From the NCBI GenBank assembly GCA_046300675.1, contig JBKCLO010000103.1:1903-65902 (forward strand): a stretch of 64,000 nucleotides of DNA, written 5' to 3'. Position 1 is the first letter of the stretch. Every line of letters begins with the position of its first letter. The stretch comes from Ignavibacteria bacterium (GTDB lineage: Bacteria > Bacteroidota > Ignavibacteria > Kapaibacteriales > Kapaibacteriaceae). Shown piece by piece: positions 1,007-61,981 of the stretch. The position numbers and the translations under genes are program-made. A model generated the notes under the pieces. That model saw nothing but the letters and a program-made list of their open reading frames with translations, was not told the DNA's origin and made no database searches.

Positions 1007-2173
1007 TCACGTAGTGCTAACGCGCGGCCAAAGTGCGCATTGTGCGCCCCATGCCTCGATCATCATTGTAACCTGGTCTCGCCAATGGTCGGCACGTGAC
1101 GTTCCATCACGGCGAGTGGCTCGAAGCAAAACGTTCTTTTGGGTGTGTTCAAGAGAGATGAATTCTTCAAGGTGTGCATCGTAGCCTTTCCAACGCAGGA
1201 TGTCGCGGCGCATGGTGTCTGTGAGCAAATCACCAAGTCGTTCCTTCGTTATGCCGTCATCGAGCAGCGGACGCGCCCATGTTGGTACACGGTCCTTCGC
1301 GAGCTGCTTCTGTACTTCGTGATGACAGCAGGGGGCAACGAGCATCGTGTCTGCATGGAGTGCCAGACCTAGTTCCAACGCATCATCCGTCGCGGTATCG
1401 CATGCATGCAGGGCGATAAGCATATCACAATGGGGCAGTGCAAGCCCCTTGCCAACCTCACTGATCCCACCGACGTAGAACTCGGCGCCGGTAAATCCCA
1501 TGTCCGCAGCAACCTTACGGCAGTGCCCGATAACATTGGGATTAGAGTCGATTCCGATGAGTCGGACCTTACGTCCCATGCGCTGCATCACATAAACCAG
1601 AGACAAAGAGAGGTAGGCCTTGCCGCAGCCTGCATCGACAACGACGAACTCGCTGTTCGCTGCTCGGTGCTCGCTGTTCGCTGCTCGCTGCAGCAAATGA
1701 TTAACCTGACGAAACTTATCTGCCATCGGGGCTTTGATGCGTCCGTCGGCGGTTGCCAAATCCATGATGTGCAGGAACGCTGCATCCTGTTCAGGCGTCA
1801 GCAGTCGTTGTTTGGTCCGGTCTGCTGTTACACCATCCCAGTGCATTCGGCTCGCAGAGCTCTGTTGCACGGAGACGCGCACGCCATCGCTCTTGAATGA
1901 ACGTATAACATGGTGGTCGTTCTCGGGTGTCTGCACCAGAATCTGACGGAATGACTCATGCAGAAGGTGTTCCAGAGCAATGTCGAGATCCTCCACAGGC
2001 TCCTGCCAGGGGGCTGTAAAGGCCTGTCGGTCTGTAAACGACTCAATACGCAGGCTCCAGAGTCCAGATGTACGTTGTCCACTGACGACGGCCTTGGTCC
2101 ACGGGCAGTTCTTTAGCGGACGCGAGAACGTGGCCACAAACACGTCGGCTGTAGACAGCAATTCGGTGAGCAT
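1007..2173 (-). CDS. Class I SAM-dependent methyltransferase (Methyltransf_32-like)
   Basis: VVDAGCGKAYLS motif I, ALHACDTATD, APCCH and EHTQKN motifs; contains an in-frame repeat-derived insert. Confidence 0.85.
   Translation of the reverse strand: MLTELLSTADVFVATFSRPLKNCPWTKAVVSGQRTSGLWSLRIESFTDRQAFTAPWQEPVEDLDIALEHLLHESFRQILVQTPENDHHVIRSFKSDGVRVSVQQSSASRMHWDGVTADRTKQRLLTPEQDAAFLHIMDLATADGRIKAPMADKFRQVNHLLQRAANSEHRAANSEFVVVDAGCGKAYLSLSLVYVMQRMGRKVRLIGIDSNPNVIGHCRKVAADMGFTGAEFYVGGISEVGKGLALPHCDMLIALHACDTATDDALELGLALHADTMLVAPCCHHEVQKQLAKDRVPTWARPLLDDGITKERLGDLLTDTMRRDILRWKGYDAHLEEFISLEHTQKNVLLRATRRDGTSRADHWRDQVTMMIEAWGAQCALWPRVSTT
1650..1691 (-). repeat. 6 x 7-bp tandem repeat inside the methyltransferase CDS
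   Basis: + strand units tcgctgt tcgctgc tcggtgc tcgctgt tcgctgc tcgctgc; encodes QRAANSEHRAANSE. Confidence 0.9.
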
Positions 2174-2174
2174 C

Positions 2175-2205
2175 CCACAAAACTACGCCCTTCGTACTTT
2201 TGTGG
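2175..2205. promoter_or_regulatory. Divergent promoter pair (two TAnnTTTG motifs) forming a 13-bp inverted repeat
   Basis: ccacaaaactacg-ccctt-cgtacttttgtgg; TAGTTTTG on - (2178-2185) and TACTTTTG on + (2195-2202), between the methyltransferase and alaS. Confidence 0.65.
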
Positions 2206-2230
2206 TTTCTTGTACGGCCAATTCACCTCA

Positions 2231-4756
2231 ATGACTTCACACCAGATACGACAGACATTTCTCGAGTTTTTTGCTGCTCGTGGACACCGCATTGTGCCTT
2301 CGGCTCCGGTGATACCTCACGGCGATCCAACCTTGCTGTTTACGAATGCAGGTATGAACCAGTTCAAGGACGTGTTCCTTGGTACTGGCAAGCGCGACTT
2401 TACGCGCGCTGCAGACACGCAGAAGTGTGTGCGCGTTTCGGGCAAGCATAACGACCTAGAAGAAGTTGGCTACGACACATACCATCACACCTTCTTCGAG
2501 ATGCTAGGCAATTGGAGCTTCGGGGACTACTTCAAAGAAGAAGCGATCGCATGGTCATGGGAGTTGCTCACCGACGTTTACAAGCTTCCCAAAGAGCGCC
2601 TTCATGCAACTGTGTATCGCACGGATGATGAATCCTTTGAGATCTGGAAGAAGTATCTGCCGGTAGATCACATTCATCGGTTCGATGAAAAGGACAACTT
2701 CTGGGAGATGGGTGATACTGGGCCATGCGGTCCGTGCACAGAAATCCATTTCGACCGTACGCCGGATCTGTCTGGCGGGCCCCTTGTCAATGCTGGCGTG
2801 CCCGAAGTAATGGAGATCTGGAACAACGTGTTCATTCAATACAACCGCAATGCTGATGGCAGTCTATCGCCACTGCCGGCCACGCACGTTGATACCGGCA
2901 TGGGCTTTGAGCGTCTATGTGCCGTGATGCAGGGTAGGGATTCGAATTACGATACCGATGTGTTTCAACCGATCATTGCCTATACGGAAGACCTTTGTGG
3001 TCGAAGCTATCGCACAGAACTCGACAATCCCGACGGCGTTGCCATGCGTGTGATTGCCGATCACATTCGTACCCTTTCCTTTGCCATCGCAGACGGCGCC
3101 ATTCCGGGCAATGAGGGAAGGGGCTATGTGCTGCGTCGAATTCTGCGCAGGGCGGCACGGTATGCCCGTAACCTCGGTATGACCGAGCCTGTGCTCTGGA
3201 AACACGTACACATTCTGTGTGACACGATGGGCGATGCGTTTCCCGAACTGCACGAGCGTAAGGATCTCATCGAGCGTATCATCCGTGCCGAGGAAGAGTC
3301 ATTCCTTGCCACACTTGATCGCGGTTTACAACGATTTGATAGCATCTCTACGTCAGGCAACCTTGTTACGGGCGCTGATGCATTTGAACTCTATGATACC
3401 TTCGGATTCCCGCTTGACCTTACGCAGCTGATCGCGCGCGAGCGTGGGCTTGATGTAGACGTAGACGGGTACAATACGTTATTGGACGAGCAGCGTGCTC
3501 GTTCGCGTGCTGCGCGCAAGTCTCACGCACAGGAAGCATCAACAGAAAAGATTGATGCGATGTCACGTTTTACCGGGTATGCAGACACTGATACTTCAGC
3601 AGAGGTGCTATACGTTAGTGGAAACACGATTGTGCTGGCTGAAACTCCGTTCTATGTTGAGATGGGCGGACAGGTATCCGATACTGGAATCATTACAGTA
3701 GGGGGCTCGCAGTACCGCGTAGACGACGTGCGCAAAGTTGGTGATGCAATCGTGCATGTTTGCGAGACAGACGTTGATGCAGCAGTAGGCGACATGGCCA
3801 AGGCAGCAATCGATGTCTCACGCAGGCGCGACGTTGAGCGCGAGCACTCGGTTACGCACCTGCTCCATGAAGCGCTTCGCCGAGTTCTCGGCACGCACGT
3901 ACAGCAGTCGGGCTCGCTCGTCGAACCTGAACGTCTGCGCTTTGATTTTGCACACTTCGAACGCATGCGTGATGATGAGCTTTCAGCTGTGGAGGAAATG
4001 GTGAACGAAAAGATCTTCGAGTCCATTGCTGTGCACACCGAGGAGATGACGATTGAGAAAGCACGTACGGTACCGGGCGCAAAAATGTTCTTTGGCGACA
4101 AGTACGGCGATTCGGTTAGGGTAGTGTTTATCGACGAGAAGTTCTCGGTTGAATTCTGCGGCGGTACGCACGTGCGCAACACTGCGGAGATCGGTCTGTT
4201 CAAGATTGTCAGTGAGTCGAGCGTTGCCAGTGGAGTGCGTCGAATCGAAGCCATAGCCGGACGCAGCATCCCTCAGTGGCTGAAGCAGTTGGACCGGAAT
4301 GCCGGGAACCTGCGCGACGATATGGCACGTCAGGCAGAGCGCATCAAGCAGCTCGAAAAGGAGCTGTTGTCCTACAAGGTCGATGAACTCAAAACCATCA
4401 TACCGGACATGGTTGCAACCGCTGAGCAGCTCGATGGATATCGACTGGCTGTGCGCAGGATCGATGGCGTTGAGATGGAACAGCTGAAGTCGTTAGGCGA
4501 CGAGCTCCGCTCGGGGCTTAAGTCTCAGGGAATCGGACTCCTGGCTGCGGTCATCGACGACAAGGTTCAGCTTGTTTGCGTAGCCACAGACGACATGGCA
4601 AAGCTCAAACCGGCTGGCAAAATTGTTGGTGCGGTTGCAAAGGAACTCGGCGGAGGTGGCGGTGGAAAACCTCATATGGCAACGGCAGGGGGCAAGGACA
4701 TAGAAAAGCTCGATATTGTGCTCAAGAACATTCCAACATTGATTTCAACTATCTAA
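2231..4756 (+). CDS. alaS: Alanine--tRNA ligase
   Basis: DPTLLFTNAGMNQFK, HHTFFEMLGNWSFGDYFK, HSVTH/CGGTH editing motifs, GGGGGK C-terminus; start moved to ATG 2231 (MTSHQIRQTF). Confidence 0.98.
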   Translation: MTSHQIRQTFLEFFAARGHRIVPSAPVIPHGDPTLLFTNAGMNQFKDVFLGTGKRDFTRAADTQKCVRVSGKHNDLEEVGYDTYHHTFFEMLGNWSFGDYFKEEAIAWSWELLTDVYKLPKERLHATVYRTDDESFEIWKKYLPVDHIHRFDEKDNFWEMGDTGPCGPCTEIHFDRTPDLSGGPLVNAGVPEVMEIWNNVFIQYNRNADGSLSPLPATHVDTGMGFERLCAVMQGRDSNYDTDVFQPIIAYTEDLCGRSYRTELDNPDGVAMRVIADHIRTLSFAIADGAIPGNEGRGYVLRRILRRAARYARNLGMTEPVLWKHVHILCDTMGDAFPELHERKDLIERIIRAEEESFLATLDRGLQRFDSISTSGNLVTGADAFELYDTFGFPLDLTQLIARERGLDVDVDGYNTLLDEQRARSRAARKSHAQEASTEKIDAMSRFTGYADTDTSAEVLYVSGNTIVLAETPFYVEMGGQVSDTGIITVGGSQYRVDDVRKVGDAIVHVCETDVDAAVGDMAKAAIDVSRRRDVEREHSVTHLLHEALRRVLGTHVQQSGSLVEPERLRFDFAHFERMRDDELSAVEEMVNEKIFESIAVHTEEMTIEKARTVPGAKMFFGDKYGDSVRVVFIDEKFSVEFCGGTHVRNTAEIGLFKIVSESSVASGVRRIEAIAGRSIPQWLKQLDRNAGNLRDDMARQAERIKQLEKELLSYKVDELKTIIPDMVATAEQLDGYRLAVRRIDGVEMEQLKSLGDELRSGLKSQGIGLLAAVIDDKVQLVCVATDDMAKLKPAGKIVGAVAKELGGGGGGKPHMATAGGKDIEKLDIVLKNIPTLISTI

Positions 4757-4771
4757 TCACAGGCTAACATC

Positions 4772-5146
4772 ATGGCAAACTCATACGAAGCAGTTGGCAC
4801 GCTTCATCATCTGACAGAAACGCAGCAAGTGAAGGACACCTTCCGCAAGCGTGAATTTGTGCTCGAGATCCAGGACGGTAACTATCCTCAGCACATCAAG
4901 TTTCAGGTAACACAAGACCGCTGTTCTATCATGGACAGTTACAAGGTCGGACAGCAACTCAAGGTGCTCTTCAATCTGCGTGGACGCCCCTTCCAAAACA
5001 AGGATGGTCAAACGGTGTATTACACTAACCTCGAGGCCTGGAAAATCGAAGCTGCCGGTGCCACAGCGCCAGCAACAACCGATTATTCTCAGATCACACC
5101 TGCTGGTTCGTCAGCCAAAGACGACTACGACGACGTGCCGTTTTAA
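4772..5146 (+). CDS. DUF3127 family protein (SSB-like OB fold)
   Basis: FRKREFVL, YPQHIKFQ, FNLRGR, YYTNLEAWKIE and acidic C-terminal DDVPF tail. Confidence 0.85.
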   Translation: MANSYEAVGTLHHLTETQQVKDTFRKREFVLEIQDGNYPQHIKFQVTQDRCSIMDSYKVGQQLKVLFNLRGRPFQNKDGQTVYYTNLEAWKIEAAGATAPATTDYSQITPAGSSAKDDYDDVPF

Positions 5147-5276
5147 GCAGCGAGCAGCGAGCAGCGAACAGCGAACAGCGAACAGCGAACAGCGAACAGC
5201 GAATAGCGAGCAGCGAGCAGCGAACAGCGAGCAGCGAACAGCGAATAGCGAACAGCGAACAGCGAACAGCGAGCAG
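5147..5276 (+). repeat. 18 x 7-bp tandem repeat (gcagcga/acagcga/atagcga), intergenic
   Basis: 18 full units counted from 5147 to 5272 plus partial gcag; starts directly after the TAA of the DUF3127 gene. Confidence 0.97.
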
Positions 5277-5357
5277 GGTAGCACCATACAACAGTGCGGT
5301 GTTAGGGGCAATGCCAACTGCGGTAGGTCATAGTACAGCAAAGAAGCGGAACATTAC

Positions 5358-6632
5358 ATGTCTGAACGTATTCTCTTGATTGGTTCGGGTGGACGCGAGC
5401 ATGCGCTTGCAAAGGCGCTGGTATCATCAACATCGTGCGAAAAACTTTGGGTTGCTCCAGGCAACCCGGGCATTGCACGTGAAGCCGAGCTCGTCGTATT
5501 GAACATTGCAGATCACGAGGCCGTAGCCACGTTCTGCCGCAAGAACAATGTTACACTTGTTGTTGTCGGCCCTGAGCAGCCCCTTGCAGACGGCCTCGCA
5601 GACACGCTTCGCGAAGAGGGGATAGACGTCTTTGGTCCATCGCAACAAGCTGCACGGCTCGAAACGTCAAAGGGCTTTTCAAAGGACTTCATGCAACGCC
5701 GTGGAGTACCGACAGCCCCTTATAGAAGATTCACTGCAACAGAGCATGAAGACGCCCGCGCATACGCAGCTGGGCATGCACTGCCCGTAGTTGTCAAGTA
5801 CGACGGTCTTGCAGCAGGCAAAGGGGTTGTAGTTGCAAGCACGCATCAAGAGGCCAATGAGGCCATAGATACAATGTATGCCGGAGCATTTGGTGATGAC
5901 GGCATTGTGATCGAGGGCTTTTTATCTGGTGAAGAAGCAAGTGTTTTTGCTGTCTGTGATGGCAAGGATTTCGTTACGCTTGCACCGGCACAAGACCACA
6001 AGAGAATCGGCGACGGAGATACAGGCAAGAACACGGGCGGAATGGGCGCGTATGCGCCCGCGCCGATCGTTACGCCAAGCGTGCTTGAGAGCGTGCATTC
6101 GCGAATCATACGTCCGGTGCTTGATGGCATGGCCGAAGAAGGTATGCCCTTTATTGGCTGCCTCTTCTGTGGCCTGATGATCGATGAGCATGGAGATCCA
6201 TCCGTGGTGGAGTTCAACGTGCGCTTCGGCGATCCTGAGACGCAGGCTGTGATGAGTGTACTCAGCGCAGACGTGGCGGCCCTTTTTGCGTCGGCAGCGC
6301 GCGGCACATTGGACAAAGCAGCCATTGCATCGGCCGCGATCGGCTTCGCATGCAATGTCGTTCTTGCATCGGCAGGCTACCCGGATGCATTTGAAAAGGG
6401 GCTTACCATCACTGGTATTGATGAGGCAGAGTCTGATCCGTTCGTAACCGTCTACCATGCAGGCACGAGAGATGCAGACGGACAGCTTGTTACTCATGGC
6501 GGACGAGTTCTGGGAGTAACTGCCACAGCCGATACACTCGAGCAGGCCGTTCGTCGGTCTTATCAGGCAGTAGACAAGATCAGCTTTGGCAATAAGTATT
6601 TCAGAACAGACATTGCAAAGAAGGCGCTGTGA
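5358..6632 (+). CDS. purD: Phosphoribosylamine--glycine ligase
   Basis: GSGGREHAL, DGLAAGKGV, QDHKR, NTGGMGAY, EFNVRFGDPE. Confidence 0.98.
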   Translation: MSERILLIGSGGREHALAKALVSSTSCEKLWVAPGNPGIAREAELVVLNIADHEAVATFCRKNNVTLVVVGPEQPLADGLADTLREEGIDVFGPSQQAARLETSKGFSKDFMQRRGVPTAPYRRFTATEHEDARAYAAGHALPVVVKYDGLAAGKGVVVASTHQEANEAIDTMYAGAFGDDGIVIEGFLSGEEASVFAVCDGKDFVTLAPAQDHKRIGDGDTGKNTGGMGAYAPAPIVTPSVLESVHSRIIRPVLDGMAEEGMPFIGCLFCGLMIDEHGDPSVVEFNVRFGDPETQAVMSVLSADVAALFASAARGTLDKAAIASAAIGFACNVVLASAGYPDAFEKGLTITGIDEAESDPFVTVYHAGTRDADGQLVTHGGRVLGVTATADTLEQAVRRSYQAVDKISFGNKYFRTDIAKKAL

Positions 6633-7546
6633 AGATTCTTGTAACAGGTGGTGCCGGTTTTATTGGTTCGCACGTGGCAGAAGCATATCTGCGTCGGGGC
6701 CATACCGTGGACATCGTCGATAATCTGTCGATGGGATATGTAGAGAACATTCCCGGTGGTGCAACCTTCTACAACATGGACATCACCTCTGATGCCTGTA
6801 CAGATCTTATCATGACAGGTGGCTATGATGCCATAAACCATCATGCTGCGCACATGGAACTGCGGGTGAGCGTTGAAAAACCCGTGCATGATGCCGGGAT
6901 TAACATCCTGGGGTCATTAAGGATCTTTGAAGCAGCCAGAAAGTCTGGTGTAAAACACATCGTTGCCGCCTCGACCACTGCAGTTCTGGGCGAGTTTGTA
7001 GAGCTGCCTGCCGACGAGACGCATCCTATTCGGCCAATTGCCCCGTATGGAGTATCAAAGAGGGCTATGGAGATTTATGCTGAATACGAGCGGATAGTAC
7101 ACGGATTGAGTATTACCATCCTGCGATACACCAATGTCTATGGTCCGCGCCAAAACCCCCACGGGGAATCTGGCGTGATTGCCATCTTTTTGGAGAAGTT
7201 TCTCAAGAATGAGGTTCCGACCATTCACGGAGACGGAAGTCAAGAACGGGACTATATCCATGTTGATGACGTTGCCAGCGCCAACGTAGCGGCACTTGAA
7301 CATCAACTTCAGGGCACCTTTCATGTTTGCCGTAATGGGGCGGCGAGTGTGAACGATGTGGTGGCCGCCCTGCGGAAGGCCCTCGGACGCGAGTATGCTG
7401 TCCACAATGGTCCTGCCAAGGCTGGCGATCCGGCAAAAACACGCGGTTCTCACGCCCTTTTTACCTCGTTTACCGGATGGAATCCCACGGTAGATCTGGA
7501 CGAGGGAATTTTCCAGACCACTGCCTGGTTTACGGGCCGACAGTGA
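6629..7546 (+). CDS. NAD-dependent epimerase/dehydratase (UDP-glucose 4-epimerase-like)
   Basis: TGGAGFIGSH, YGVSK (YxxxK), NVYGPRQ; GTGA overlap with purD. Confidence 0.9.
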   Translation: MKILVTGGAGFIGSHVAEAYLRRGHTVDIVDNLSMGYVENIPGGATFYNMDITSDACTDLIMTGGYDAINHHAAHMELRVSVEKPVHDAGINILGSLRIFEAARKSGVKHIVAASTTAVLGEFVELPADETHPIRPIAPYGVSKRAMEIYAEYERIVHGLSITILRYTNVYGPRQNPHGESGVIAIFLEKFLKNEVPTIHGDGSQERDYIHVDDVASANVAALEHQLQGTFHVCRNGAASVNDVVAALRKALGREYAVHNGPAKAGDPAKTRGSHALFTSFTGWNPTVDLDEGIFQTTAWFTGRQ

Positions 7547-7670
7547 TTTTTCCACAACTACGTTACCGCAAAAGATCTGCACATGAACCCTTGCACTTTT
7601 ACACAATAGTGCGGTGGTCGTATTTTAGCGCAATTATCAAGAGCTAGATCAACACGAGAGGTTCACATAC

Positions 7671-9119: not shown

Positions 9120-9138
9120 CTGGAACCAGGAGTAAACA

Positions 9139-25590: not shown

Positions 25591-25664
<74 letters not shown>

Positions 25665-43431: not shown

Positions 43432-45456
43432 ATGAAAAAGATCGTGCTTCGTCCGGCAAGTGTAGCGCCTAATGGTGCATCATATCGCATTGACTATGCC
43501 TCGGTCCTAAATCCGCAGCAGTATCAAGCGGTGATGCACAACAATGGTCCTGCGTTGGTGTTGGCAGGTGCTGGCACAGGTAAGACCCGAACGCTTACCT
43601 ATCGGGTTGCAAGACTGGTTGAAGATGGAGTTGACCCTTCATCGATCTTGCTGCTCACGTTCACGCGCAAGGCAGCTTCGGAGATGCTTCGTAGGGCCTC
43701 GCACCTTCTCGATGGACGTTGTGAGCACGTCTCAGGAGGAACGTTTCATGCTTTCGCATTCAGAGTGCTTAAAACGTACGGGATGCCAGGGGGCGTGCAG
43801 CAAGCAGCAAGCAACGAGCAGCGAGCAGTGTATTCGATCATCGATCAGTCGGACGCTGAGGACATTATGAATCTTGTGCGTAGCAAGTTTGATCTTGCTG
43901 CCAGGCGCAAGAGGTTCCCGAACAAGGGCACATTGCACGACATGTACAGTAAGTCTGTGAATATGTCAAAGCCCCTTGACGAGCTCATTGCAGAACAGTA
44001 TCCGCAGTTTGTCGACGATACCGAGACAATCCGCCACATGGTGCATGCATATACTGACTACAAACACAAGAACTCGTTGTTTGACTACGACGACCTGCTA
44101 CTGTATCTGCTGGCAATGACCCGTCACGAGACAATTGGCACTGCGTTGCGATCGCAATTCCGACACATCATGGTAGATGAATACCAGGACACAAACAACC
44201 TCCAACACCAGATTGTCTTAGGATTAGCCGGTACAAGCGGTAATGTGATGGTTGTTGGCGATGATGCACAAAGCATCTACTCGTTTCGTGGCGCCAATGT
44301 TCGAAACATTCATACCGTGCCGTCTTCGTTTGATTCCTGCGCAATCATCCGCCTAGAGGAGAACTACCGCAGCACGCAGCCGATTCTTGATGTTTGCAAT
44401 GCAGTGCTGGAAGATGCTCCGTTTATGTTTGAGAAGAAGCTGCGAGCGCATCGACAAGGGGGCGATCAGCCAATGCTGATCACTGCCAGAAGCGAGCGTC
44501 AGCAATCGCAGTTTATTGCTCAGCATGTGCTCGAATTGCGCGAACAAGGGGTACCTCTTACCGAGATCGCTGTGCTTGTGCGCAGTGGCTTTCTTTCGTT
44601 TGATCTTGAGATCGAACTTCAGCGCGCCAATGTCCCGTTCCGAAAGTTCGGCGGACTCAAGTTTGCAGAAGCTGCGCACGTGAAAGACATACTGGCACGC
44701 CTGCGCATAACCGAGAATGTCCGCGATGTTGTCTCGTGGTTCCGTGTGCTACAACAGCTCGAGGGCGTCGGACAGAAAACAGCGCAGATCATCATTGATC
44801 ACCTTCTTGAGCATCCAGATCCGCTCACCGAACCAGAACGCACGTATGGCAGCACTGGTAAGGCGGCCCACGCGCTGAACAACCTTCTACATGAGCTAGG
44901 CAAGGCACGGCTTGTGCGACATCCTCTAGACAGACTCCAATACATTGCCGAGCACTATAAGCCTACGCTGGAGCGAGTTCACGATGATGCCCCCAAGAGA
45001 TGGAAGGACATCGAGACCATCGTTGGTATAGGTGGCAGGTACGGGTCATGTCAGGAGTTCCTCGATGATATTGCACTTGAGCCCCCTACAGATGGACTAG
45101 ACACGATAGACCCCGACGACAGAGAAACAGAATTCATGACTATTTCTACTATTCATTCGGCTAAGGGGCTGGAATGGAAGGTCGTATTCGTGCTGTCGGT
45201 AAACGAGGGCCGCATTCCATCGGCAAAGAGTGCCGAATCCGAAGAATCAATCGAAGAGGAACGCAGACTTCTCTATGTTGCATGCACTCGGGCGAAGGAT
45301 ACACTTATCATGACCTATCCTGATGTGATGGCAGAGTGGCAGCACTCGGACGTACTCTCACGTCCAAGCCGATTCTTGGACAATGTTGCTAATGAGCTTT
45401 GTCCTCGATACTTCCTAGCCGAAGAACAACCTGACTCGCAGGAGTTGCTCTCATGA
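43432..45456 (+). CDS. UvrD/PcrA-family ATP-dependent DNA helicase
   Basis: AGAGTGKT, LTFT, TFH, VDEYQD, GDDAQSIYSFRGA, NYRS, TIHSAKGLEW, EEERRLLYVA.TRA. Confidence 0.95.
   Translation: MKKIVLRPASVAPNGASYRIDYASVLNPQQYQAVMHNNGPALVLAGAGTGKTRTLTYRVARLVEDGVDPSSILLLTFTRKAASEMLRRASHLLDGRCEHVSGGTFHAFAFRVLKTYGMPGGVQQAASNEQRAVYSIIDQSDAEDIMNLVRSKFDLAARRKRFPNKGTLHDMYSKSVNMSKPLDELIAEQYPQFVDDTETIRHMVHAYTDYKHKNSLFDYDDLLLYLLAMTRHETIGTALRSQFRHIMVDEYQDTNNLQHQIVLGLAGTSGNVMVVGDDAQSIYSFRGANVRNIHTVPSSFDSCAIIRLEENYRSTQPILDVCNAVLEDAPFMFEKKLRAHRQGGDQPMLITARSERQQSQFIAQHVLELREQGVPLTEIAVLVRSGFLSFDLEIELQRANVPFRKFGGLKFAEAAHVKDILARLRITENVRDVVSWFRVLQQLEGVGQKTAQIIIDHLLEHPDPLTEPERTYGSTGKAAHALNNLLHELGKARLVRHPLDRLQYIAEHYKPTLERVHDDAPKRWKDIETIVGIGGRYGSCQEFLDDIALEPPTDGLDTIDPDDRETEFMTISTIHSAKGLEWKVVFVLSVNEGRIPSAKSAESEESIEEERRLLYVACTRAKDTLIMTYPDVMAEWQHSDVLSRPSRFLDNVANELCPRYFLAEEQPDSQELLS
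43797..43830 (+). repeat. About 4-5 degenerate 7-bp units inside the helicase CDS
   Basis: gcagcaa gcagcaa gcaacga gcagcga gcagtg; encodes QQAASNEQRAV. Confidence 0.7.
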
Positions 45457-52274: not shown

Positions 52275-52447
52275 CAAAGCCGTAATGCGGCCTGGAAGCC
52301 CCATTCCATAGGAGTTCTGGCCTAAAAAACGGCTGGAGACCCTGTAAATAGGTTCATGTGGAGAATTCATGCTTGAAATGCCCTGCAAACAGGGACTATT
52401 ATTGCACCCATAACTGGTTTTATCCAATCGTTTACATGGGGGTTCCT

Positions 52448-52798
52448 ATGAACAAAGCAGAGCTAGTAGAAGCTATTGCTAACGCCGCTGGACTCAGCAA
52501 GTCACAAGCTGACACTGCGCTGAATGCAGCAATCGGTGCCATCAAGTCAGAACTTGGCAAGGGTGGCAGTGTTTCTCTCATCGGTTTCGGTTCATTCAGT
52601 GTTGGTAAGCGCGGTGCTCGCACAGGTCGCAACCCAGCAACGGGTGCAACGATCAAGATCGCAGCTCGCAAGGTTGCAAAGTTCTCAGCTGGTGCAGACC
52701 TTAAGGCAGTTGTGAACGGCGAGAAGAAGTCTGGTGCTAAGAAGGCAGCTCCAAAGAAGGCAGCTCCGAAGAAGGCAGCAGCGAAGAAGAAAAAGTAA
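52448..52798 (+). CDS. hup: HU family DNA-binding protein with Lys/Ala/Pro-rich C-terminal tail
   Basis: MNKAELV, IGFGSF, RTGRNP.TG; start moved to ATG 52448. Confidence 0.95.
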   Translation: MNKAELVEAIANAAGLSKSQADTALNAAIGAIKSELGKGGSVSLIGFGSFSVGKRGARTGRNPATGATIKIAARKVAKFSAGADLKAVVNGEKKSGAKKAAPKKAAPKKAAAKKKK

Positions 52799-53785: not shown

Positions 53786-56700
53786 ATGCCAAAGCGTACC
53801 GACATACAAACCATTCTCGTGATCGGATCAGGCCCGATCGTCATCGGTCAAGCATGCGAGTTTGATTACTCAGGAACGCAGGCCTGTAAAGTGCTGCGCG
53901 AAGAAGGATACCGCGTTGTGCTGATCAATTCGAATCCGGCAACGATCATGACGGATCCGAACATTGCAGATGCCACGTATGTAGAACCAATCACGCCCTA
54001 TTACATCGAAGAGGTTATCAAGAAAGAGAAGCCTGACGCTATTCTTCCAACCATGGGAGGTCAAGTAGCTCTGAATGCAGCTGTATCGCTGCACGAAGCA
54101 GGCATTCTTGAGAAGTATGGAATAGAGCTTATCGGTTCAAAGATCGAGTCGATCCACAAGGCCGAAGACCGCGAGCTGTTCCTGAATGCCATGCTTAAGA
54201 TCGGCATGGAAATGACGCGAGGCGGATTTGTGCATGCCTTTGAAGAGGGTATGGCCATGATTGATGATGTTGGATTTCCAGCCATTATCCGTCCGTCGTT
54301 TACCTTAGGTGGAACCGGTGGGGGAATTGCCTACAACATCGAAGAGTATCGCGAGATCCTTCGCAATGGTCTGGTGGCAAGTCCCATTGGCCGAGTACTG
54401 GTTGAGGAAAGCATCATCGGCTGGAAGGAATACGAGCTCGAGGTAATGCGCGACACAAAGGACAATGTCGTGATCATCTGCTCGATTGAAAATGTTGACC
54501 CGATGGGTGTGCACACTGGCGATTCGATCACTGTTGCACCGGCGCAAACGCTCACAGATCGTGAATACCAGCGCATGCGTGATGCTTCGCTCAAAATCAT
54601 TCGCGAGATCGGTGTCGAGACAGGGGGCTCCAACATCCAGTTTGCCGTGAACCCGGCAGACGGACGCATGGTGGTGATCGAAATGAATCCACGTGTCTCG
54701 CGCAGCTCAGCGCTTGCCTCGAAGGCAACTGGATTTCCGATCGCAAAGATTGCCGCAAAACTCGCGGTTGGATATACGCTCGACGAGATCATCAACGACA
54801 TCACAAAGAAGACACCGGCCTGTTTTGAGCCGTCAATAGATTATGTCGTTGTTAAGGTGCCACGTTGGGATTTTGAAAAATTCCACGAAGCAGACAATTC
54901 CCTTGGCATCCAGATGAAGTCCGTTGGAGAGGCCATGGCCTTCGGCCGCACCTTTAAAGAGGCATTGCAGAAGTGCCTTCGGTCACTCGAACAAAAACGC
55001 TACGGATTTGGGTTCGACCGTGAGCGCTATCTCGAGGATGTGCCGCAAGAGGATGGAATGCTGGCCCCCTTGCATGTGCGGCTCGGACAACGGACATCAC
55101 GATCCATGGACGACCTCTGTGATGCGCTGCGGTATGGAATGTCTGTAGAAGAGATTCATGCAATATCGAAGTACGATCCATGGTTTATCGTTCAGTGTAA
55201 GCAGATCGTAGACGAGGCGCAATCGCTGCTGCATGATGTGCATGCTGGCATGGAATCGATTGCCCACATCTCACGCGTGCGTCTGCACAAGCTCAAGCGC
55301 TATGGTTTTAGCGACATGCAGATCGGCCTGCTCATGGGTGTTGCCGAAGACGATGTGCGCAAGCGCCGCAAGGATATTGGTGTGCTGCCTGTGTTTAAGA
55401 CGGTAGACACGTGTGCCGCAGAATTCGAATCGCAGACGCCATATCATTACTCCTGCTACGATACAGAGAACGAAGCTATACCAAGTGCGAACAAGAAGGT
55501 GATCATTCTCGGCAGCGGACCCAACCGTATTGGGCAGGGTATCGAGTTTGACTATTGCTGCGTTCAGGGACTGTTCGCTCTCAAGGAGATGGGCTACGAA
55601 GCCATCATGATCAATTGTAATCCTGAAACAGTCTCCACAGATTACGACACAACAAGTAGGCTGTATTTCGAGCCCCTTACGTTCGAAGATGTGATGAATG
55701 TGGTCGACATCGAACGTCCGGACGGGGTTGTGATCACATTTGGCGGACAAACCCCTTTGAAGCTGGCACAGCGCCTTGCCAAGGCGGGAGTATCGCTCAT
55801 CGGTACATCGCCCGAAGGTATCGACCTTGCAGAAGACCGCCAGCGGTTCGGTGATCTGCTTACACGACTCCACATTCCATGTCCACCCTGGGGAACCAGC
55901 ACCGACGAGGAACATGCCGTAGAGATTGCCGAGCGTGTAGGCTATCCTGTTCTTGTGCGTCCGTCCTACGTGCTTGGTGGGCGTGCAATGCAGATCTGCT
56001 ACCGGGAGGATTCGTTGCGGGCATATATGCGTAAGGCTATCGCAGAAGACCCGACACGCCCTGTGTTGATTGACCACTTTCTCGAGAATGCAACAGAGTT
56101 TGACGTAGACGCGATCAGCGATGGCAAGACAACGGTGATCGGTGGAATGATGCAGCACATAGAAGAGGCCGGTATACACTCAGGAGACTCGTCATGTGTG
56201 CTGCCACCATATAGTGTGGGTCAAGACGTATTGGACACGATGCGACAATACGCCGTCAAGATTGCCAAGGAGCTTAACGTTATTGGCCTGCTCAACATGC
56301 AGTTTGCCGTGCAGAACGGCAACGTCTATTTGCTTGAAGTAAATCCTCGTGCATCGCGCACAGTGCCCTTTGTTTCAAAGGCCACTGGCGTCAAGCTAGC
56401 TCAGCTTGCGACGCGCGTCATGGTCGGTCATGAACTTGCCTCGTTGAACGTTCCTGAATTCGACCCTGGCATGAAGCGCACAGCGATCAAGGAGTCTGTA
56501 TTTCCATTTGCGAAGTTTCCGCACGCAAGCGTGTTCCTTGGTCCAGAAATGCGGTCGACGGGCGAAGTCATGGGCATGGATGCATCCTTCGGTATTGCGC
56601 TGGTAAAGGCGCACATTTCTGCCGGACAAACGTTGTCTAAAGAAGGAAGCGTGTTTGTATCACTTAGCTCACACGACAAGACGCAGCGTGCCATTGAAAT

Positions 56701-57052
56701 GGTACGGGGCTATGCAGAACTTGGATTCAAGATCCTTGCAACAAGAGGTACGGCGGGCTTCCTTCAGGAGCACGGCGTGCAGGCAACAACGGTGCTCAAG
56801 CATTACGAGGGACGTCCAAGCATCATAGACCAGATCGCTAACGGCGAAGTATCCATTGTGATCAACACGCCGCTTGGAGAGAACGCACGCTATGATGAGG
56901 CAGTGATGGGCCGAACTGCAATGAAGTATAAGGTACCGTTTTTTACAACCCTGGCTGCAGCCGAAGCCTCGCTCCACGGTGTAAAGGCCCTGCGCGAAGA
57001 ACAGTTCACGTCTACCTCACTTCAGGATTATTATGTCGCCGACGCGTCCTGA
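53786..57052 (+). CDS. carB: Carbamoyl-phosphate synthase large subunit
   Basis: MPKRTDI...[17 protein letters not shown], duplicated ATP-grasp domains, MGS-like C-terminus. Confidence 0.98.
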
Positions 57053-57920
57053 GCTGCCGCAGGTCTGGACCGTACGCGACATCATTCAGTGGGGACGTGA
57101 GTTCTTCACAAATCGGGGCATCGACGAGGCACGCAGAACAATTGAACTCATGGTATGTGCCGTTCTCGGTACCAAGCGTATCGAGCTCTACACAGATCAT
57201 GAACGCCCACTTAGCAAAGACGAACTTGCCCAGCTCAAGGCCATGATCCAGCGGCGGGTGGCTCGCGAGCCCCTTCAATACATTCTTGGCAAAGCAGACT
57301 TCTACGGTAGTGTCTTCGTGGTAACGCCCGCAGTACTGATACCGCGTCCGGAGACAGAGCTTATTGCCGAGCGGGTATCGCGCTATTGTGCAGCCAAGAG
57401 CGAGCAGCAGTTTGTCTGTCTCGATATCGGTACTGGATCGGGATGCATACCTATCGCCATCATCAAGCACACAACAAATACCACATGGACAGGTATCGAC
57501 GTATCTACCGAGGCACTTTCGGTGGCATCGACTAATGCGGAGATGCTTGGTGCCAGTGGACGGTTCCAATCGCAGGAATTGGATGTTCTGACATCGGTGC
57601 CGCTTGGTGGACCGTTCGATATCATCACGATGAACCCGCCATATATCGGTTCGGCAGACCTCGAAGAATGCGAAGTCGAAGTAAAAGACCACGAACCAAC
57701 AACAGCTCTTACCGATCATGCTGACGGACGAACATTCTACCATCGGCTTGCAGAAATCATGATGCAGATCATACGTCCGGGAGGGCTTGTTTTTCTCGAG
57801 ATCGGGGCCGGACAAGATCGCGATGTGGAAAACATCTTTCAGTCTCGCGGCCACCTGACGACCACGATCCCAGATCTGGCGGGCATTCCAAGGCTTATCA
57901 TTGTCGAGCCAGGTACATAA
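57033..57920 (+). CDS. prmC: Release factor glutamine methyltransferase
   Basis: [35 protein letters not shown]. Confidence 0.95.
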
Positions 57921-58031
57921 CTATCTGATAATGTGCCCAGCTCAAAGGCCTGTGAGAAGAATCATTTTTCGTAGATTCGACGATCTGAAAACGGAATTAA
58001 CAACATTATCTATCTCAGCAAGGGTTGATGT

Positions 58032-58811
58032 ATGAAGAACTTGACGAACCTGATCTTCATCGGTGGATGTTTGGTCGCGGCGTATGTCCTGTACTATTTG
58101 GTTCTCGGTAATCCCGGAAACTTTAACGACGTCGAAAAGCTCGATCCCAAGAACTCACTTGGCACGATCTACACGGGTGGATTCCTTGTAGGTCTGCTCA
58201 TCGCCTGCATCCTGGTTTCGATCACCTACACGATCGAGCGCGTGCTTACCATCGGCAAGGCTGGTGGTTCAGGTGACATGAAGACATTCGGAAGTGCGGT
58301 TGTAGAGAATGTACAGAAGGGTAACTACAGCGCCGCCATCGCAGCATGTGATGACCAGCGTGGTTCACTTGCCAACGTTCTTCGTGCGGCTGTTTCGCGC
58401 TTTCAGGCCATTGAAAAGGATCCTGAGTTGAACGGCGACCAGAAGATCGCTGAAACGCAGCGTGTTATCGACGAGAACATGAACCTTGAGACACCACTCC
58501 TTGAGAAGAACCTGCCGATTCTGTCGACAGTTGCATCGGTATCAACGATGATCGGTCTTCTTGGCACGACGCTCGGTATGATCCGTTCGTTCCAGGCACT
58601 CGGTGCATCGGGAACGGTATCAGCCCAAGCTCTTTCGATCGGTATCTCGGAAGCTCTCTACAACACAGCTGGTGGACTGATCGCAGCCATCCTTTCGATC
58701 GTAGCGTACAACTACTTTACATCGAAGGTGGATGATTTCACATATCGTATGGACGAGACGCTGCTGGATCTTATGCAGTCTCTCGCTGTGAAGACAGGCA
58801 CAAAGGCCTAA
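58032..58811 (+). CDS. exbB: MotA/TolQ/ExbB proton channel protein
   Basis: IER, LEKNL, GLLGT..GMI.SF, GISEAL.NTA.G. Confidence 0.92.
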   Translation: MKNLTNLIFIGGCLVAAYVLYYLVLGNPGNFNDVEKLDPKNSLGTIYTGGFLVGLLIACILVSITYTIERVLTIGKAGGSGDMKTFGSAVVENVQKGNYSAAIAACDDQRGSLANVLRAAVSRFQAIEKDPELNGDQKIAETQRVIDENMNLETPLLEKNLPILSTVASVSTMIGLLGTTLGMIRSFQALGASGTVSAQALSIGISEALYNTAGGLIAAILSIVAYNYFTSKVDDFTYRMDETLLDLMQSLAVKTGTKA

Positions 58812-58840
58812 CGTAGCTCCACTCCGGTAAGGAAGATCAA

Positions 58841-59359
58841 ATGTCGAAAATCAAGAAGAAGCGCCTTGGTTTTGTGCTGGACATGACGCCGTTGGTGGAC
58901 ATCACGTTCCTCCTTCTAACGTTCTTCATGTTCACGGCCAAGTTCAAGAGCGATTCGGAAAACCAACAAAAAGTCGAGATCAAGCGTCCGCGTACAACCG
59001 TGGATACGGCAAAGCTGGCCGACAAGGACCTTGTTATCATCAAGGTGGGTGTAGACTCTGTTCTCAAGGACACAGCCTACTACGTCTCGATGCTCAATGA
59101 GCAGGATGTGGTAAACCTGCGTCGTGCCATGGCAACGTTAAAGTTCCCTGGTATGGACGAGAAGACCGTCTCGTTCAAGGTCATGGACACGGTTTGGCTT
59201 GGTCAGATCATCGAACAGGCGCGGTTTGTCAATCCACGCGCTTCGTTTGCTATCGACGCAGACAAACGTCTGCGTTATCAGTGGATTGAAACGGCGATCA
59301 ACGAGATGAGGAAGAAGAAGGCAACAACCTTCAACTTCGTCACCGAAAAGAAAATGTAA
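58841..59359 (+). CDS. exbD: Biopolymer transporter ExbD
   Basis: DMTPLVDITFLLLTFFM, I.ADK. Confidence 0.92.
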   Translation: MSKIKKKRLGFVLDMTPLVDITFLLLTFFMFTAKFKSDSENQQKVEIKRPRTTVDTAKLADKDLVIIKVGVDSVLKDTAYYVSMLNEQDVVNLRRAMATLKFPGMDEKTVSFKVMDTVWLGQIIEQARFVNPRASFAIDADKRLRYQWIETAINEMRKKKATTFNFVTEKKM

Positions 59360-59374
59360 ACAACGAGGTAACTC

Positions 59375-59926
59375 ATGGCAGGCGGTGGTGAATTAGGCGG
59401 AGGTAAATCCGAACGGCGGGGGAAGAAAGGCAAGCGCAAAGCGAAAAAGCGTCTTGGCTTTCGTCTCGACATGACGCCGCTTGTGGATATTACATTCCTG
59501 CTGCTGACGTTCTTCATGCTGACCACATCGATGATCACTCCACAAACAATGGAGATGAATGTTCCGCCCGAGATCGATGAACCAGTTGAAGTGAAGGAGT
59601 CGGAACTGCTCACGATTCGTATTCGTGAAGACGGAGTACTCTTTGCTAACATGGCAAAGGACACTCCGGAGAAGTACACAGTAAAGACGCTCCAGAAGTA
59701 CGTAACAGACCAGAATGTAGCGCTCAAGAACCGCTGTATCGTTGTTCTTAAGGCTTCTCCTAACGCCCCGTACGGGTTGGTCGTCTCGGTGCTTGACATT
59801 CTGAATGCAGCTGAGCCGGAGATCCTACAGGGACTCAAGTCTGCCGGTATCAACGAGCGCAAGCGCAAGTTTACAGTCTCTCCTTTCGACAAGACAGAAG
59901 ACGAAGAAAGGATCACGGGACTATGA
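59375..59926 (+). CDS. exbD: Biopolymer transporter ExbD (second copy)
   Basis: DMTPLVDITFLLLTFFMLTT, A.Y..VV.VLD. Confidence 0.92.
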   Translation: MAGGGELGGGKSERRGKKGKRKAKKRLGFRLDMTPLVDITFLLLTFFMLTTSMITPQTMEMNVPPEIDEPVEVKESELLTIRIREDGVLFANMAKDTPEKYTVKTLQKYVTDQNVALKNRCIVVLKASPNAPYGLVVSVLDILNAAEPEILQGLKSAGINERKRKFTVSPFDKTEDEERITGL

Positions 59927-60723
59927 GTACCGCAGCATCAGTAACCGACGCACTTGATGGTGTAAAGTACGGCGCAGCCGAGATCAAGCGTCTGATTCAA
60001 GCGAACACAGAGCGTGCGTTCAAGATCACGATGGCGCTGCTGCTTTTGCTTGCGTTGTACACGTTTGTTGGACCAATCATTTCCGAGTGGTTGTTTCCTT
60101 CACCAAAAGTTGTCAAGGTCAAGCTCTCTCGTCTTTAGCTCGAGGCATTGCCACCACCGCAGTCGCACACAGAAGAGGCTCCACCGCCTCCTCCGCCGTC
60201 AAATCTTCCGCCAGCACCAGCAGCGCGTGCAGGAACGCCTGTTGCTGTTCCGGATGCAGAGATCACGGCAGACATGCAGGACTTTGCGAATATCGACCAG
60301 ATCAACCGTTCGTCTTCGCAAGGAGGCAGTGGTGATGACAGCGGCGTCCTGAGCTTTGACCCAGGTGCGGGTGGTCCGCCACGTGAAGAAGAAGAAGAGA
60401 TCATGGATGCCTTTGAATTCGAAGACGGCTTCCTGCCGGTTACAGACGAAGGCGACCTTGTCAAGAAACTACGCGACCTTTACACGACAACACAATCGTT
60501 CCGTATGGGATTCGAAGGTACGGTGCTTGTGAGCTTTGTTGTTGGTAAGGATGGCCGAATCTCTGAAGTCAAGGTAGATCCAGAAGGTTCAAGCGGCTAT
60601 AAGGACCTCGACGAGGCAGCCATTAAGGCGATTCGCATGTCTGTGTACACACCTGCGAAAAACGCAAACGGACAGCCCACAGCTTGCCGTCTGCAGCGTC
60701 CAGTTACCTTCCGCCAACGTTAA
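59923..60723 (+). pseudogene. tonB: Energy transducer TonB interrupted by one in-frame TAG (60136-60138)
   Basis: ORFs 59923-60138 and 60148-60723 are in the same frame: YGA.E.KR + TM helix, then KLSRL*LEALPPP, Pro-rich linker, TonB_C (EGTV.VSFVV.KDG...LDEAA); could also be a sequence error or readthrough. Confidence 0.75.
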
Positions 60724-60733
60724 CACGAAATAC

Positions 60734-60767
60734 AAAGCCCCGTGTCACCACTGACACGGGGCTTTTT
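60734..60767 (+). terminator. Intrinsic terminator after tonB
   Basis: aaagccccgtgtca-ccac-tgacacggggcttt plus T run. Confidence 0.88.
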
Positions 60768-60801
60768 CTATTTTGTCCCGACCTTATCACTCGAGTTGCC
60801 C

Positions 60802-60996
60802 ATGTATGTCATCAATATCCTAGCCCGTGTCCTGGTTGCCTTGGTCGGACTGCTCATTGCCATCGGTGAAATCACCGTTGGCAACCTTGGCTCGCCGTTC
60901 CAAGAAACGTTCGGCATCGTCGTCTTCTTGTTCGGTGCCTTTCGCGTTGCACAGTTTATCTCAAGGAGCAGAGATGAGAGTTCTGATGATGCATGA
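60802..60996 (+). CDS. Small two-helix membrane protein (64 aa)
   Basis: MYVINILARVLVALVGLLIAIG...FGIVVFLFGAFR; overlaps the start of the next gene. Confidence 0.65.
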   Translation: MYVINILARVLVALVGLLIAIGEITVGNLGSPFQETFGIVVFLFGAFRVAQFISRSRDESSDDA

Positions 60997-61981
60997 GCGG
61001 GCAACTCGCTGTTCGCTACTCGCTGCTTGCTGTTCGCTGCTCGCTGTTCGCTGTTCGCTACTCGCTGCTTGCTGTTCGCTGCTCGCTGTTCTATTTGCCG
61101 CCTGCACAGAGCAGCCAGATCCGTCAAAGGCTGGCTATGAGTCTGCCATTCAGGGGGCTGTTACGGTGCTCATCGATCCTGAGTATCGCGAGCTTATGGA
61201 TACGATACAGACCCTGTATGCAAAGGAACACCCCAAGGCCACTATTACATTCAAGGAAGCGGTGGCAGGGGATGCGATGATGTCGATGTTGAACCGCACC
61301 GAGCGTATTGCAATCGTAGCCCGCAACTACACCCCTGCCGAGGAAGAGGTCCGCCTGGCGGCCGGTGCTGATTCATTGCCGCGTGCCTTGCTCTCAGTAG
61401 ACGCACTCGTTGTGCTTGTTCCGAAGTCATTCCCCTACGACACAATGAATGCGGAGCACATACGGGGCTGGCTCAAAGGGGATGCCTCGGTAACAAAGAA
61501 CTATCCCAAGCTTGCAAAGTCACCACAGTTTGTGGTGCCCGGTGGGGCAGATGCCTCTATCTACGGCAATGTGGTCAACGTGGTCTTAGGTGGAAAACAG
61601 CCGGCCAAGGGCACAGTTGCAGCTGTTGGGACTCGTGATAGTCTCAAGCAGGTCATCGCTTCACGTCCGGGCAGTTATATAGGTTTTGGGCTACTTTCTC
61701 AGTACGTGCGCGATTCGTCCGTAAAGATGCTTCGTCTAAGCTACATGGATTCGACAGGAGCACATGTATGGCCGAAACCAGTTCATTCATCGTACCTGAT
61801 GATGCGCAAATACCCGTTCCCTGTGCCGGTTTATGTCTATCTCAAGCGGGTACCGAGTCAGCGAGATCTTGCCAGCGGATACATGCAATTCGTAACCCGT
61901 AGCGGCAAGGTCCAAAAGCTGCTCTTCGACTGGGGAATAGAGCCTGCATATGCTAAGGTTACGCTCTATGACGAGGAGTAA
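60974..61981 (+). CDS. PstS-like (PBP2) substrate-binding lipoprotein
   Basis: ATG 60974 after aaggag (alternatives 60986/60989), lipobox-like FAAC, D....P/Y...P.A.I, DALVVLV, YPF...VYVY, F..S..Q pattern. Confidence 0.8.
   Translation: MRVLMMHERATRCSLLAACCSLLAVRCSLLAACCSLLAVLFAACTEQPDPSKAGYESAIQGAVTVLIDPEYRELMDTIQTLYAKEHPKATITFKEAVAGDAMMSMLNRTERIAIVARNYTPAEEEVRLAAGADSLPRALLSVDALVVLVPKSFPYDTMNAEHIRGWLKGDASVTKNYPKLAKSPQFVVPGGADASIYGNVVNVVLGGKQPAKGTVAAVGTRDSLKQVIASRPGSYIGFGLLSQYVRDSSVKMLRLSYMDSTGAHVWPKPVHSSYLMMRKYPFPVPVYVYLKRVPSQRDLASGYMQFVTRSGKVQKLLFDWGIEPAYAKVTLYDEE
61006..61089 (+). repeat. 12 x 7-bp tandem repeat (2 x exact 42 bp) encoding the signal-peptide core
   Basis: (tcgctgt tcgctac tcgctgc ttgctgt tcgctgc tcgctgt) x2; encodes RCSLLAACCSLLAV twice. 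Confidence 0.95.

Follow-up and report, generated by a model that had tools for sequence, protein, structure and literature searches.

Heptamer satellites were noticed decades ago in cyanobacteria and later in Beggiatoaceae and some Bacteroidetes, yet no account of their origin or role has won acceptance. The closest described case is the TAACTGA repeat, which is found in Beggiatoaceae, 15 cyanobacteria and 5 Bacteroidetes and whose copies inside open reading frames (ORFs) occur only in the orientation that lacks stop codons and only at the periphery of proteins (MacGregor 2015, PMC4679880; this source, and PMC8262952, PMC9879509 and PMC10053308 below, are cited from partial text). The same paper summarizes Mrazek 2007, according to which heptanucleotides are the most abundant class among longer simple repeats. 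Here we describe another heptamer, RCAGCGA (reverse complement TCGCTGY), in a 64,000-nucleotide stretch of an Ignavibacteria bacterium (GCA_046300675.1, contig JBKCLO010000103.1, positions 1,903 to 65,902 of the forward strand), referred to throughout as the window, and in the genome around it.

Other systems are relevant to the comparison. Rickettsia palindromic elements (RPEs) are palindromes of roughly 100-150 bp that lie in frame in protein genes at tolerant surface sites, and CTCTT repeats in the opa leader peptides of Neisseria switch genes by slippage. Heptanucleotide phase variation is described in Haemophilus (PMC8262952), with 7-bp repeats at the hmw promoters. Finally, intervening sequences (IVSs) of 23S rRNA can carry a PF05635 gene (PMC10053308); this IVS protein family consists of Avd-like four-helix bundles.

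A preliminary description of the window proposed that RCAGCGA enters genes in frame and yields opposite peptide chemistries depending on orientation. The genome-wide analysis places the emphasis elsewhere. The arrays are best read, with a probability of about 0.72, as a mainly intergenic, slippage-prone and self-copying satellite. The few copies in genes would be by-products, tolerated where they pass a filter on frame and chemistry.

Results

Arrays in the window

The window contains four RCAGCGA arrays, located with Tandem Repeats Finder (TRF) and then by reading the sequences directly, at the places given in the preliminary description. The arrays and the genes that hold or flank them are:

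1007-2173, minus strand, Methyltransf_32 gene (Pfam PF13679, E 4.4e-32)
1649-1691, minus-strand reading, RCAGCGA array of 6 units (TRF 6.1 copies, unit CTCGCTG)
4772-5146, plus strand, DUF3127 gene (family match; TAA stop at 5144-5146)
5148-5276, plus strand, RCAGCGA array (TRF 18.4 copies, unit CAGCGAA), intergenic, between the DUF3127 gene and purD
5358-6632, purD, downstream of the 18-unit array
43432-45456, plus strand, UvrD helicase gene (family match)
43797-43828, plus strand, degenerate RCAGCGA array (TRF 4.6 copies) inside the UvrD gene
60974-61981, plus strand, gene for a PBP_like_2 (PstS-like) lipoprotein, downstream of ExbB-ExbD-ExbD-TonB
61005-61091, minus strand (the plus strand carries the TCGCTG sense), RCAGCGA array (TRF 12 copies)

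Three of the four arrays lie in long open frames and are translated in frame; whichever of the six frames is read, the unit is free of stop codons. The largest array, at 5148-5276, is non-coding, so in-frame entry into genes holds for the other three only. It starts 1 nt past the TAA that closes the DUF3127 gene, leaves 81 nt between its end and purD, and has the CAGCGAA reading in the sense of the mRNA. The plus strand beside it shows nothing that resembles a terminator or a promoter, and the window holds no inverted partner array for it. None of the four arrays contains an internal palindrome when read directly, and no known RNA family in Rfam overlaps any of them; a tRNA gene at 25591-25663 is all that reaches the Rfam gathering score within the window. 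The array at 61005-61091 is an exact 42-bp block present twice.

Genome-wide census

Seven is the commonest tandem-repeat period in the whole genome (G000; 2,528,162 bases in 193 contigs, 51.9% G+C), accounting for 196 TRF rows and 8,689 bp; the runner-up, period 9, has 173 rows and 4,517 bp. Merging of the rows with at least three copies gives 134 period-7 arrays, distributed as follows:

RCAGCGA family, 54 arrays, 3,488 bp
AATTACN family, 50 arrays, 3,050 bp
ACTCTCC family, 18 arrays, 623 bp
GGCACTC family, 6 arrays, 313 bp
other units, 6 arrays, 180 bp

The genome therefore has at least four families of heptamer unit. This census is a lower bound, because 26 of the 134 arrays, compared with an expected 5.3%, have a contig end no more than 350 nt away.

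Counted more strictly, in phase, RCAGCGA forms 50 arrays whose lengths run from 3 to 41 units, with unit numbers modulo 3 of 18/14/18. The three clean arrays of the window had been noted as multiples of 6 units (42 bp); this is true inside the window but not of the genome, and is a coincidence. A pattern of four RCAGCGA units has 198 matches in the genome, far more than chance would give, whereas the same pattern read backwards has none. It is also present in 10 of the 29 genomes of the genus, so that the family is dispersed, as had been proposed, and not limited to a few copies.

The gene calls used to place the arrays give 2,030 genes and 93.6% of the genome as coding. Despite this, 85 of the 134 arrays are intergenic and another 26 only touch a gene end, mostly by 20 nt or less, which leaves 23 wholly inside genes. 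With 111 arrays outside genes or at their ends, gene entry is not the main feature, contrary to the emphasis of the preliminary description. The arrays thus have three or more tandem copies, are dispersed and mainly intergenic, and vary by whole units between relatives, which makes them heptanucleotide satellites of the long simple sequence repeat (LSSR) or short tandemly repeated repetitive (STRR) type.

Orientation and stop codons

The non-coding arrays follow a rule of position and orientation. Between co-directional genes, 15 RCAGCGA arrays are in the sense orientation and 1 is antisense. Among non-coding RCAGCGA arrays that start no more than 10 nt past a stop codon, as judged from the gene calls, 19 carry CAGCGAA in the sense direction and 3 the opposite; the same tally for AATTACN is 21 versus 3, and the ACTCTCC and GGCACTC families likewise have a preferred orientation. 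A second test dispenses with gene calls and counts arrays from -4 to +11 nt of the stop of any open frame of at least 100 codons. Here 19 of the 50 RCAGCGA arrays follow a stop in the CAGCGA sense, versus 4 of 50 in the TCGCTG sense. The 18-unit array of the window conforms to this rule.

The relative G034 agrees, with 8 sense arrays versus 1 antisense and most arrays 0-7 nt past a stop, in a sample of 20 regions (138 kb) that were picked for presence of the pattern and are therefore biased for presence, not for orientation. The rule hints at a constraint or function that acts at the RNA level or is linked to transcription.

Coding copies

The three coding arrays of the window are read in two chemically different ways. 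The array at 1649-1691 reads LQRAANSEHRAANSE on the minus strand within the Methyltransf_32 protein, and that at 43797-43828 reads VQQAASNEQR in the UvrD helicase. The array at 61005-61091 reads TRCSLLAACCSLLAVRCSLLAACCSLLAV and is followed by the lipobox LFAAC; it forms the hydrophobic signal-peptide core of the PBP_like_2 lipoprotein, whose gene has AAGGAG 6 nt upstream of the ATG and the lipobox just past the array.

In an alignment of 20 methyltransferase orthologs, the repeat fills a variable linker that runs from KFRQVNHL to the S-adenosylmethionine (SAM) motif VVDAGCGKAYLS; the SAM motif downstream of the repeat reads VVDAGCG. Four orthologs (G000, G013, G018 and G006) have the repeat, with differing copy numbers, and the other 16 have a short non-repeat linker. 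An AlphaFold2 model (mean predicted local distance difference test score (pLDDT) 84.6) shows the repeat as the end of a helix plus coil before strand-β1, and the pLDDT of 10-residue blocks falls to 67 there. The G013 ortholog (L087) carries a second in-frame repeat in the linker, three copies of RHSRDLF adjoining the SEQRAAS repeat, and its open frame is 435 residues long, compared with 391 in G000.

The UvrD loop between FHAFAFRVL and DQSDAED consists of SEQRxAS heptapeptides in seven genomes, with the following copy numbers:

1 copy, G037
2 copies, G000, G013 and G018
3 copies, G006 and G040
5 copies, G034

In G034 the DNA at this site is a clean 15-unit array. The loop is non-repeat in 20 of 28 orthologs, with one further alignment row truncated. 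For the lipoprotein, all 20 orthologs have an ordinary signal peptide that ends in a Cys lipobox (by eye), and the array within it differs among close relatives:

G000, 12 units
G013 (protein 98% identical), 6 units (shorter by one 42-bp block)
G018, about 4 degenerate units
G006, none

These alignments show that all three coding arrays of the window are lineage-specific, replacing variable loops or a lipoprotein signal peptide, and the suggestion that the peptides are not ancient is borne out. Differences in the coding arrays between genomes come in steps of 21 or 42 bp and are always in frame.

Outside the window, G000 has two more signal-peptide regions in the hydrophobic sense (C107:19478 and a minus-strand gene at C161:6265), which makes three cases of arrays in regions that encode lipoprotein signal peptides. 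In G034 the hydrophobic reading follows an N-terminal membrane segment, and polar readings stand directly after a lipobox Cys and in internal loops. Overall, the hydrophobic reading is confined to N-terminal export or membrane segments (4 confident cases), whereas the polar reading occurs in loops, linkers and tails and never as a signal-peptide core (8 confident cases). The coding cases of the two genomes thus uphold the earlier claim that opposite orientations yield polar and hydrophobic peptides in matching contexts. The site of landing decides which reading survives, hydrophobic in export signals and polar in loops, and these copies are a clean natural example of a non-triplet satellite making new peptide segments.

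Two further arrays in G000, C119:16337-16435 (14 units) and C92:18-302 (41 units), are apparently halves of one gene for a membrane-anchored protein, with a polar RCAGCGA linker that is broken across the two contigs. Its G034 ortholog has 4.5 units and a separate ARPDNIAV repeat in three copies.

Turnover and spread of the arrays

Two spacers illustrate how arrays come and go. Of 17 genomes, 14 have a short spacer without repeats before a deacetylase-like gene. In the other three (L305-L307) it holds (TTACTGA)11 in G018, (CTAGGGA)8 plus (GTACCTA)5 in G006, and RCAGCGA arrays flanking a PF05635 gene in G000. The protein encoded beside the spacer is 92-93% identical among these three genomes. 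This spacer is a natural series for dating the birth and replacement of arrays. The spacer upstream of purD carries period-7 arrays with differing units in 10 related metagenome-assembled genome (MAG) loci. Some spacers are therefore occupied repeatedly, each time by whichever family abounds in the genome concerned.

All 21 RCAGCGA arrays of eight or more units mix ACAGCGA (216 of 452 units) with GCAGCGA (175), and both variants occur in G034 (87 and 98 units, respectively). Arrays were seemingly copied as multi-unit blocks, because slippage from a single seed should give one pure variant each.

These observations are accommodated by the following scheme. The normal home of an array is non-coding DNA, typically within about 10 nt past a stop and in the CAGCGAA sense, often as part of inverted pairs or composites. 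Arrays would grow by replication slippage. Existing arrays elsewhere in the genome, and not single seeds, would supply the sequence that starts new arrays or replaces old ones, probably by template switching or gene conversion; no dedicated mobilizing gene would be needed. Where an array arrives in a gene, or grows there, it could be translated as a 7-residue repeat, because the unit is stop-free in six frames. Selection would then retain net lengths divisible by 3, hence the 21-bp steps, and would retain the polar Q-R-A-A-N/S-S-E in surface loops and linkers and the hydrophobic R-C-S-L-L-A-V/A in export signals.

Several points weigh against the satellite account as given. One is the orientation rule itself, as neutral slippage combined with a frame filter predicts no strong preference for one orientation or for abutting stops. 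The stop-abutting rule also failed to show in other relatives with other units, where 3 of 22 arrays lie at stops (321 kb; a small sample analyzed with the G000 codon model). Template switching or gene conversion between arrays is inferred. The genes were called with a home-made codon-usage caller trained on long open frames, and of the analyses above only the caller-free stop test is independent of it. The assembly is in 193 contigs with arrays near their ends, so that both the census and the copy numbers of long arrays are lower bounds. Logan contigs from the public sequencing runs X1 and X4 break in the 84-bp array of the lipoprotein gene, and the raw-read runs X22 and X23 lack the organism. 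Finally, the tally of coding contexts is small and includes orthologous pairs. The orientation rule, together with the bracketing of PF05635 genes described below, falls outside the satellite account, and the two are the most interesting leads.

Arrays as possible functional elements

The rival that fares best holds that the arrays are functional RNA or DNA elements, similar to repetitive extragenic palindromic (REP) sequences or bacterial interspersed mosaic elements (BIMEs), and would act as 3' stem-loops, terminators, mRNA stabilizers or RNase III sites, with coding copies incidental. The fixed orientation and the abutment to stop codons are what such elements would show, as are small genes bracketed by inverted arrays. 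The AATTACN family adds inverted pairs that are nearly always in one order: [AATTACN]n precedes [NGTAATT]n in nine pairs with gaps of 5-101 bp and in two more with gaps of 274 and 444 bp, while the reverse order occurs once (gap 363 bp). An RCAGCGA array precedes an NGTAATT array in 7 cases, and other unit families also form inverted pairs. However, most RCAGCGA arrays are solo and unable to form a stem, and the 18-unit array of the window, with neither partner nor terminator-like site on its strand, is one of them. A functional element is also difficult to reconcile with complete turnover of the unit between sister species at one site. As the sole explanation it seems possible but clearly second to the satellite account, with which it overlaps.

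PF05635 genes between inverted arrays

The preliminary description listed four-helix-bundle genes and reverse transcriptases among the neighbours worth checking. No reverse transcriptase (RVT_1) match exists in the genome, but the four-helix-bundle genes do have a place beside the arrays. All three PF05635 genes of G000 lie between inverted heptamer arrays, versus 3 of about 2,027 other called genes:

C77:5295-6003, PF05635 gene between RCAGCGA arrays
C112:461-1344, PF05635 gene between RCAGCGA arrays
C144:8539-9149, PF05635 gene between AATTACN arrays

Under a strict definition, with period-7 arrays on both sides within 300 bp and mutually reverse-complementary units, 5 of the 2,030 called genes of G000 are bracketed, 2 of them PF05635. 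By the same definition, arrays are found on both sides of 14 PF05635 loci of the genus, on one side of 1 and at neither side of 13 (28 of 30 loci with both flanks; L121-L150). In a sample of the phylum the corresponding numbers are 5, 12 and 11 (28 of 30 loci; L171-L200), so that 17 of 28 have a period-7 array on at least one side. The flanking units vary by locus (AGGTTTG/AACCTCA, GGGACTA/TAGTCCC and GGTTCCG/AACCTGG), and four further PF05635 loci of the genus are flanked by 14-mer arrays instead. The cassette locus on C77 (L137) has no rRNA match and its neighbours are protein genes. The PF05635 genes of G000 are enclosed by inverted repeats, as in an IVS, but the C77 cassette does not interrupt a gene for 23S rRNA.

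Arrays also surround other small genes, whose products are an NYN-domain protein, a Zeta_toxin-like kinase and a SnoaL_2 protein. On contig C45 (1968-4279), arrays alternate with an NYN-domain gene, a Zeta_toxin-like P-loop kinase and a possible partner ORF, and the region resembles a chain of cassettes with heptamer arrays in between. A comparison of RNA-duplex energies of PF05635 flanks, sense versus antisense, was dropped, as random control positions scored like many of the loci.

It is tempting to regard the arrays and the PF05635 genes as one system. The gene would be an IVS-like cassette outside rRNA, enclosed by inverted arrays, that comes and goes at post-stop spacers, and solo arrays and gene-less hairpins would be its footprints or landing pads. 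At the deacetylase-like spacer the cassette is found only in G000 and two sisters hold other arrays, as this idea would have it. Array density also agrees: three genomes of the genus with PF05635 have 17 arrays in 380 kb, compared with 3, all marginal, in 400 kb of four PF05635-negative ones, although the negative genomes are mostly of one clade and represent one or two events. The phylum sample runs in the expected direction (2 in 300 kb versus 17 in 400 kb), a trend confounded by GC content and by AT-rich low-complexity repeats. On the other hand, G037 and G040 carry RCAGCGA arrays and have no PF05635 match, one pair of PF05635 proteins whose flanking units differ is, by eye, a closer match than a pair that shares its unit, and there are 3 PF05635 genes for 134 arrays. 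We consider this idea doubtful. If true, it would give the long-unexplained heptamer satellites of cyanobacteria and Bacteroidota a testable gene partner.

Array length and contingency

The window region 54000-63900 is contained in 20 public runs from 14 studies (freshwater, estuary and plankton metagenomes), with 0.81-0.93 of its sampled words present. Contigs of two of the public runs, from different studies, span the UvrD array without a gap and are identical there. Contigs of the same two runs halt inside the 84-bp array (at 61035 and 61049) and resume at 61062, thus entering it from both sides. Word depth in the bin of this array is 315-380, compared with about 12 elsewhere, as expected of a collapsed dispersed repeat. 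The arrays are real, and they fragment short-read assemblies of this lineage.

These data also bear on a third explanation, in which the coding arrays are contingency loci and slippage of one or two units (7 or 14 bp) toggles their genes. A unit length that is no multiple of 3, the presence of arrays in three lipoprotein signal-peptide regions of G000, copy numbers that vary between close relatives and the heptanucleotide precedent in Haemophilus (PMC8262952) are all in its favour. Against this, all differences seen among genomes preserve the frame (21 or 42 bp), and UvrD and the methyltransferase are housekeeping enzymes, which would hardly profit from being switched on and off. The array in UvrD is invariant between the contigs of the two independent runs, and no out-of-frame allele is seen, although the data could not show one in the long arrays. 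Contingency is improbable for these genes.

The remaining explanations, that the peptides are ancient conserved sequence or that the arrays are assembly artefacts, are very improbable and already largely refuted. Orthologs outside the subclade are repeat-free (16 of 20; 20 of 28, with one row truncated; the G006 signal peptide), arrays recur at these sites in relatives that were assembled independently, and two independent runs have contigs that run into the 84-bp array from either flank. The broken contigs and the 26 arrays near contig ends do make the exact copy numbers of long arrays uncertain.

Host genome and other features of the window

The preliminary description had implied a cyanobacterial setting, which is not what the genes indicate. 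The closest relatives of purD come from MAGs that bear the labels Kapaibacterium, Ignavibacteria or Melioribacter, with identities that reach 87%, and the window encodes components of type IX secretion (PorV and a C25 peptidase). The arrays are accordingly not STRRs in the strict sense, in which the host is a filamentous cyanobacterium. The other genes of the window serve core functions, among them AlaRS, a caa3-type oxidase, alternative complex III, FtsK, CarB and ExbBD-TonB.

As had been stated earlier, the window holds no mobilizing gene: no transposase, reverse transcriptase or nuclease family is found among the 54 of 55 called genes that were scanned. In the whole genome, Y1_Tnp, the family of the RAYT transposases that accompany REP and BIME elements, gives one weak match only (24.6 bits for a cut-off of 23; contig C193). 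A search for XisH is blank, but it is equally blank in every control genome and is uninformative.

A repeat of another kind lies in the gene of an HU-type DNA-binding protein (52436-52795), where 3.4 copies of the in-frame 15-bp unit AAGAAGGCAGCTCCG at 52739-52789 encode a Lys/Ala-rich tail. One public-run contig (X1) jumps back 36 at this point, which suggests variation of copy number between populations.

Comparison with known systems

The arrays resemble cyanobacterial STRRs and LSSRs in that heptanucleotides dominate the longer simple sequence repeats, that several families share a genome and that slippage is proposed (PMC4679880). They differ in their host, which is no cyanobacterium. We know of no report in cyanobacteria of the stop-codon orientation rule or of PF05635 bracketing (cyanobacterial genomes were not searched). 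Two units may nevertheless be shared: ATTGGTC (C45:2029-2059, C167:24443-24518 and similar) is a rotation of TTGGTCA, which we take to be STRR2, and CCCAGTA, present in 19 copies in G010 (L262-L265 region), is a near rotation of CCCCAGT, presumably also an STRR unit.

Like RPEs, the coding copies are repeat DNA in frame inside protein genes; unlike RPEs, they are tandem heptamers in which no palindromic element is seen. Tandem repeats of Borgs are likewise fast-evolving, arise independently and add tolerated peptide repeats, which in Borgs create disordered regions (PMC9879509). Those are frame-keeping repeats of archaeal extrachromosomal elements, whereas here the repeats lie on a bacterial chromosome and have a 7-nt unit of which only triplets keep the frame. 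The PF05635 cassettes share with the 23S rRNA IVS a small Avd-like four-helix-bundle gene within inverted repeats (PMC10053308), but here tandem heptamer arrays serve as the inverted repeats, and protein genes lie on either side of the cassette.

A literature search did not find heptamer repeats linked to Kapabacteria or Ignavibacteria, an association of PF05635 with heptamer arrays, or translation in both orientations sorted to matching protein contexts. It did not find fixed-orientation stop abutment in print either, although the supplementary tables of PMC4679880 were outside the search and may overlap. Three regularities can now be tested: the start of arrays at stop codons, their fixed orientation to transcription and the inverted arrays that bracket PF05635 genes. 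The genus is a compact comparative system for this, with genomes of ~2.5 Mb, sisters with and without arrays and the same spacers occupied by different families.

The closest match remains the TAACTGA repeat. Both consist of 7-nt tandem units at many, mostly intergenic sites with other heptamer families mixed in, and both show 7-nt indels between strains, contigs that end in arrays and occasional in-ORF copies at the edges of proteins; long TAACTGA arrays also occur in some Bacteroidetes (PMC4679880). The Kapaibacterium-type lineage is outside the hosts reported for TAACTGA in the text cited (PMC4679880). Heptamer satellites with in-ORF copies are thus already known, and here they are found in an unreported lineage. 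The repeats of Maribeggiatoa lie just upstream of start codons (PMC4679880), whereas RCAGCGA arrays abut stops, and RCAGCGA, unlike TAACTGA, is stop-free both ways and has both of its readings in proteins.

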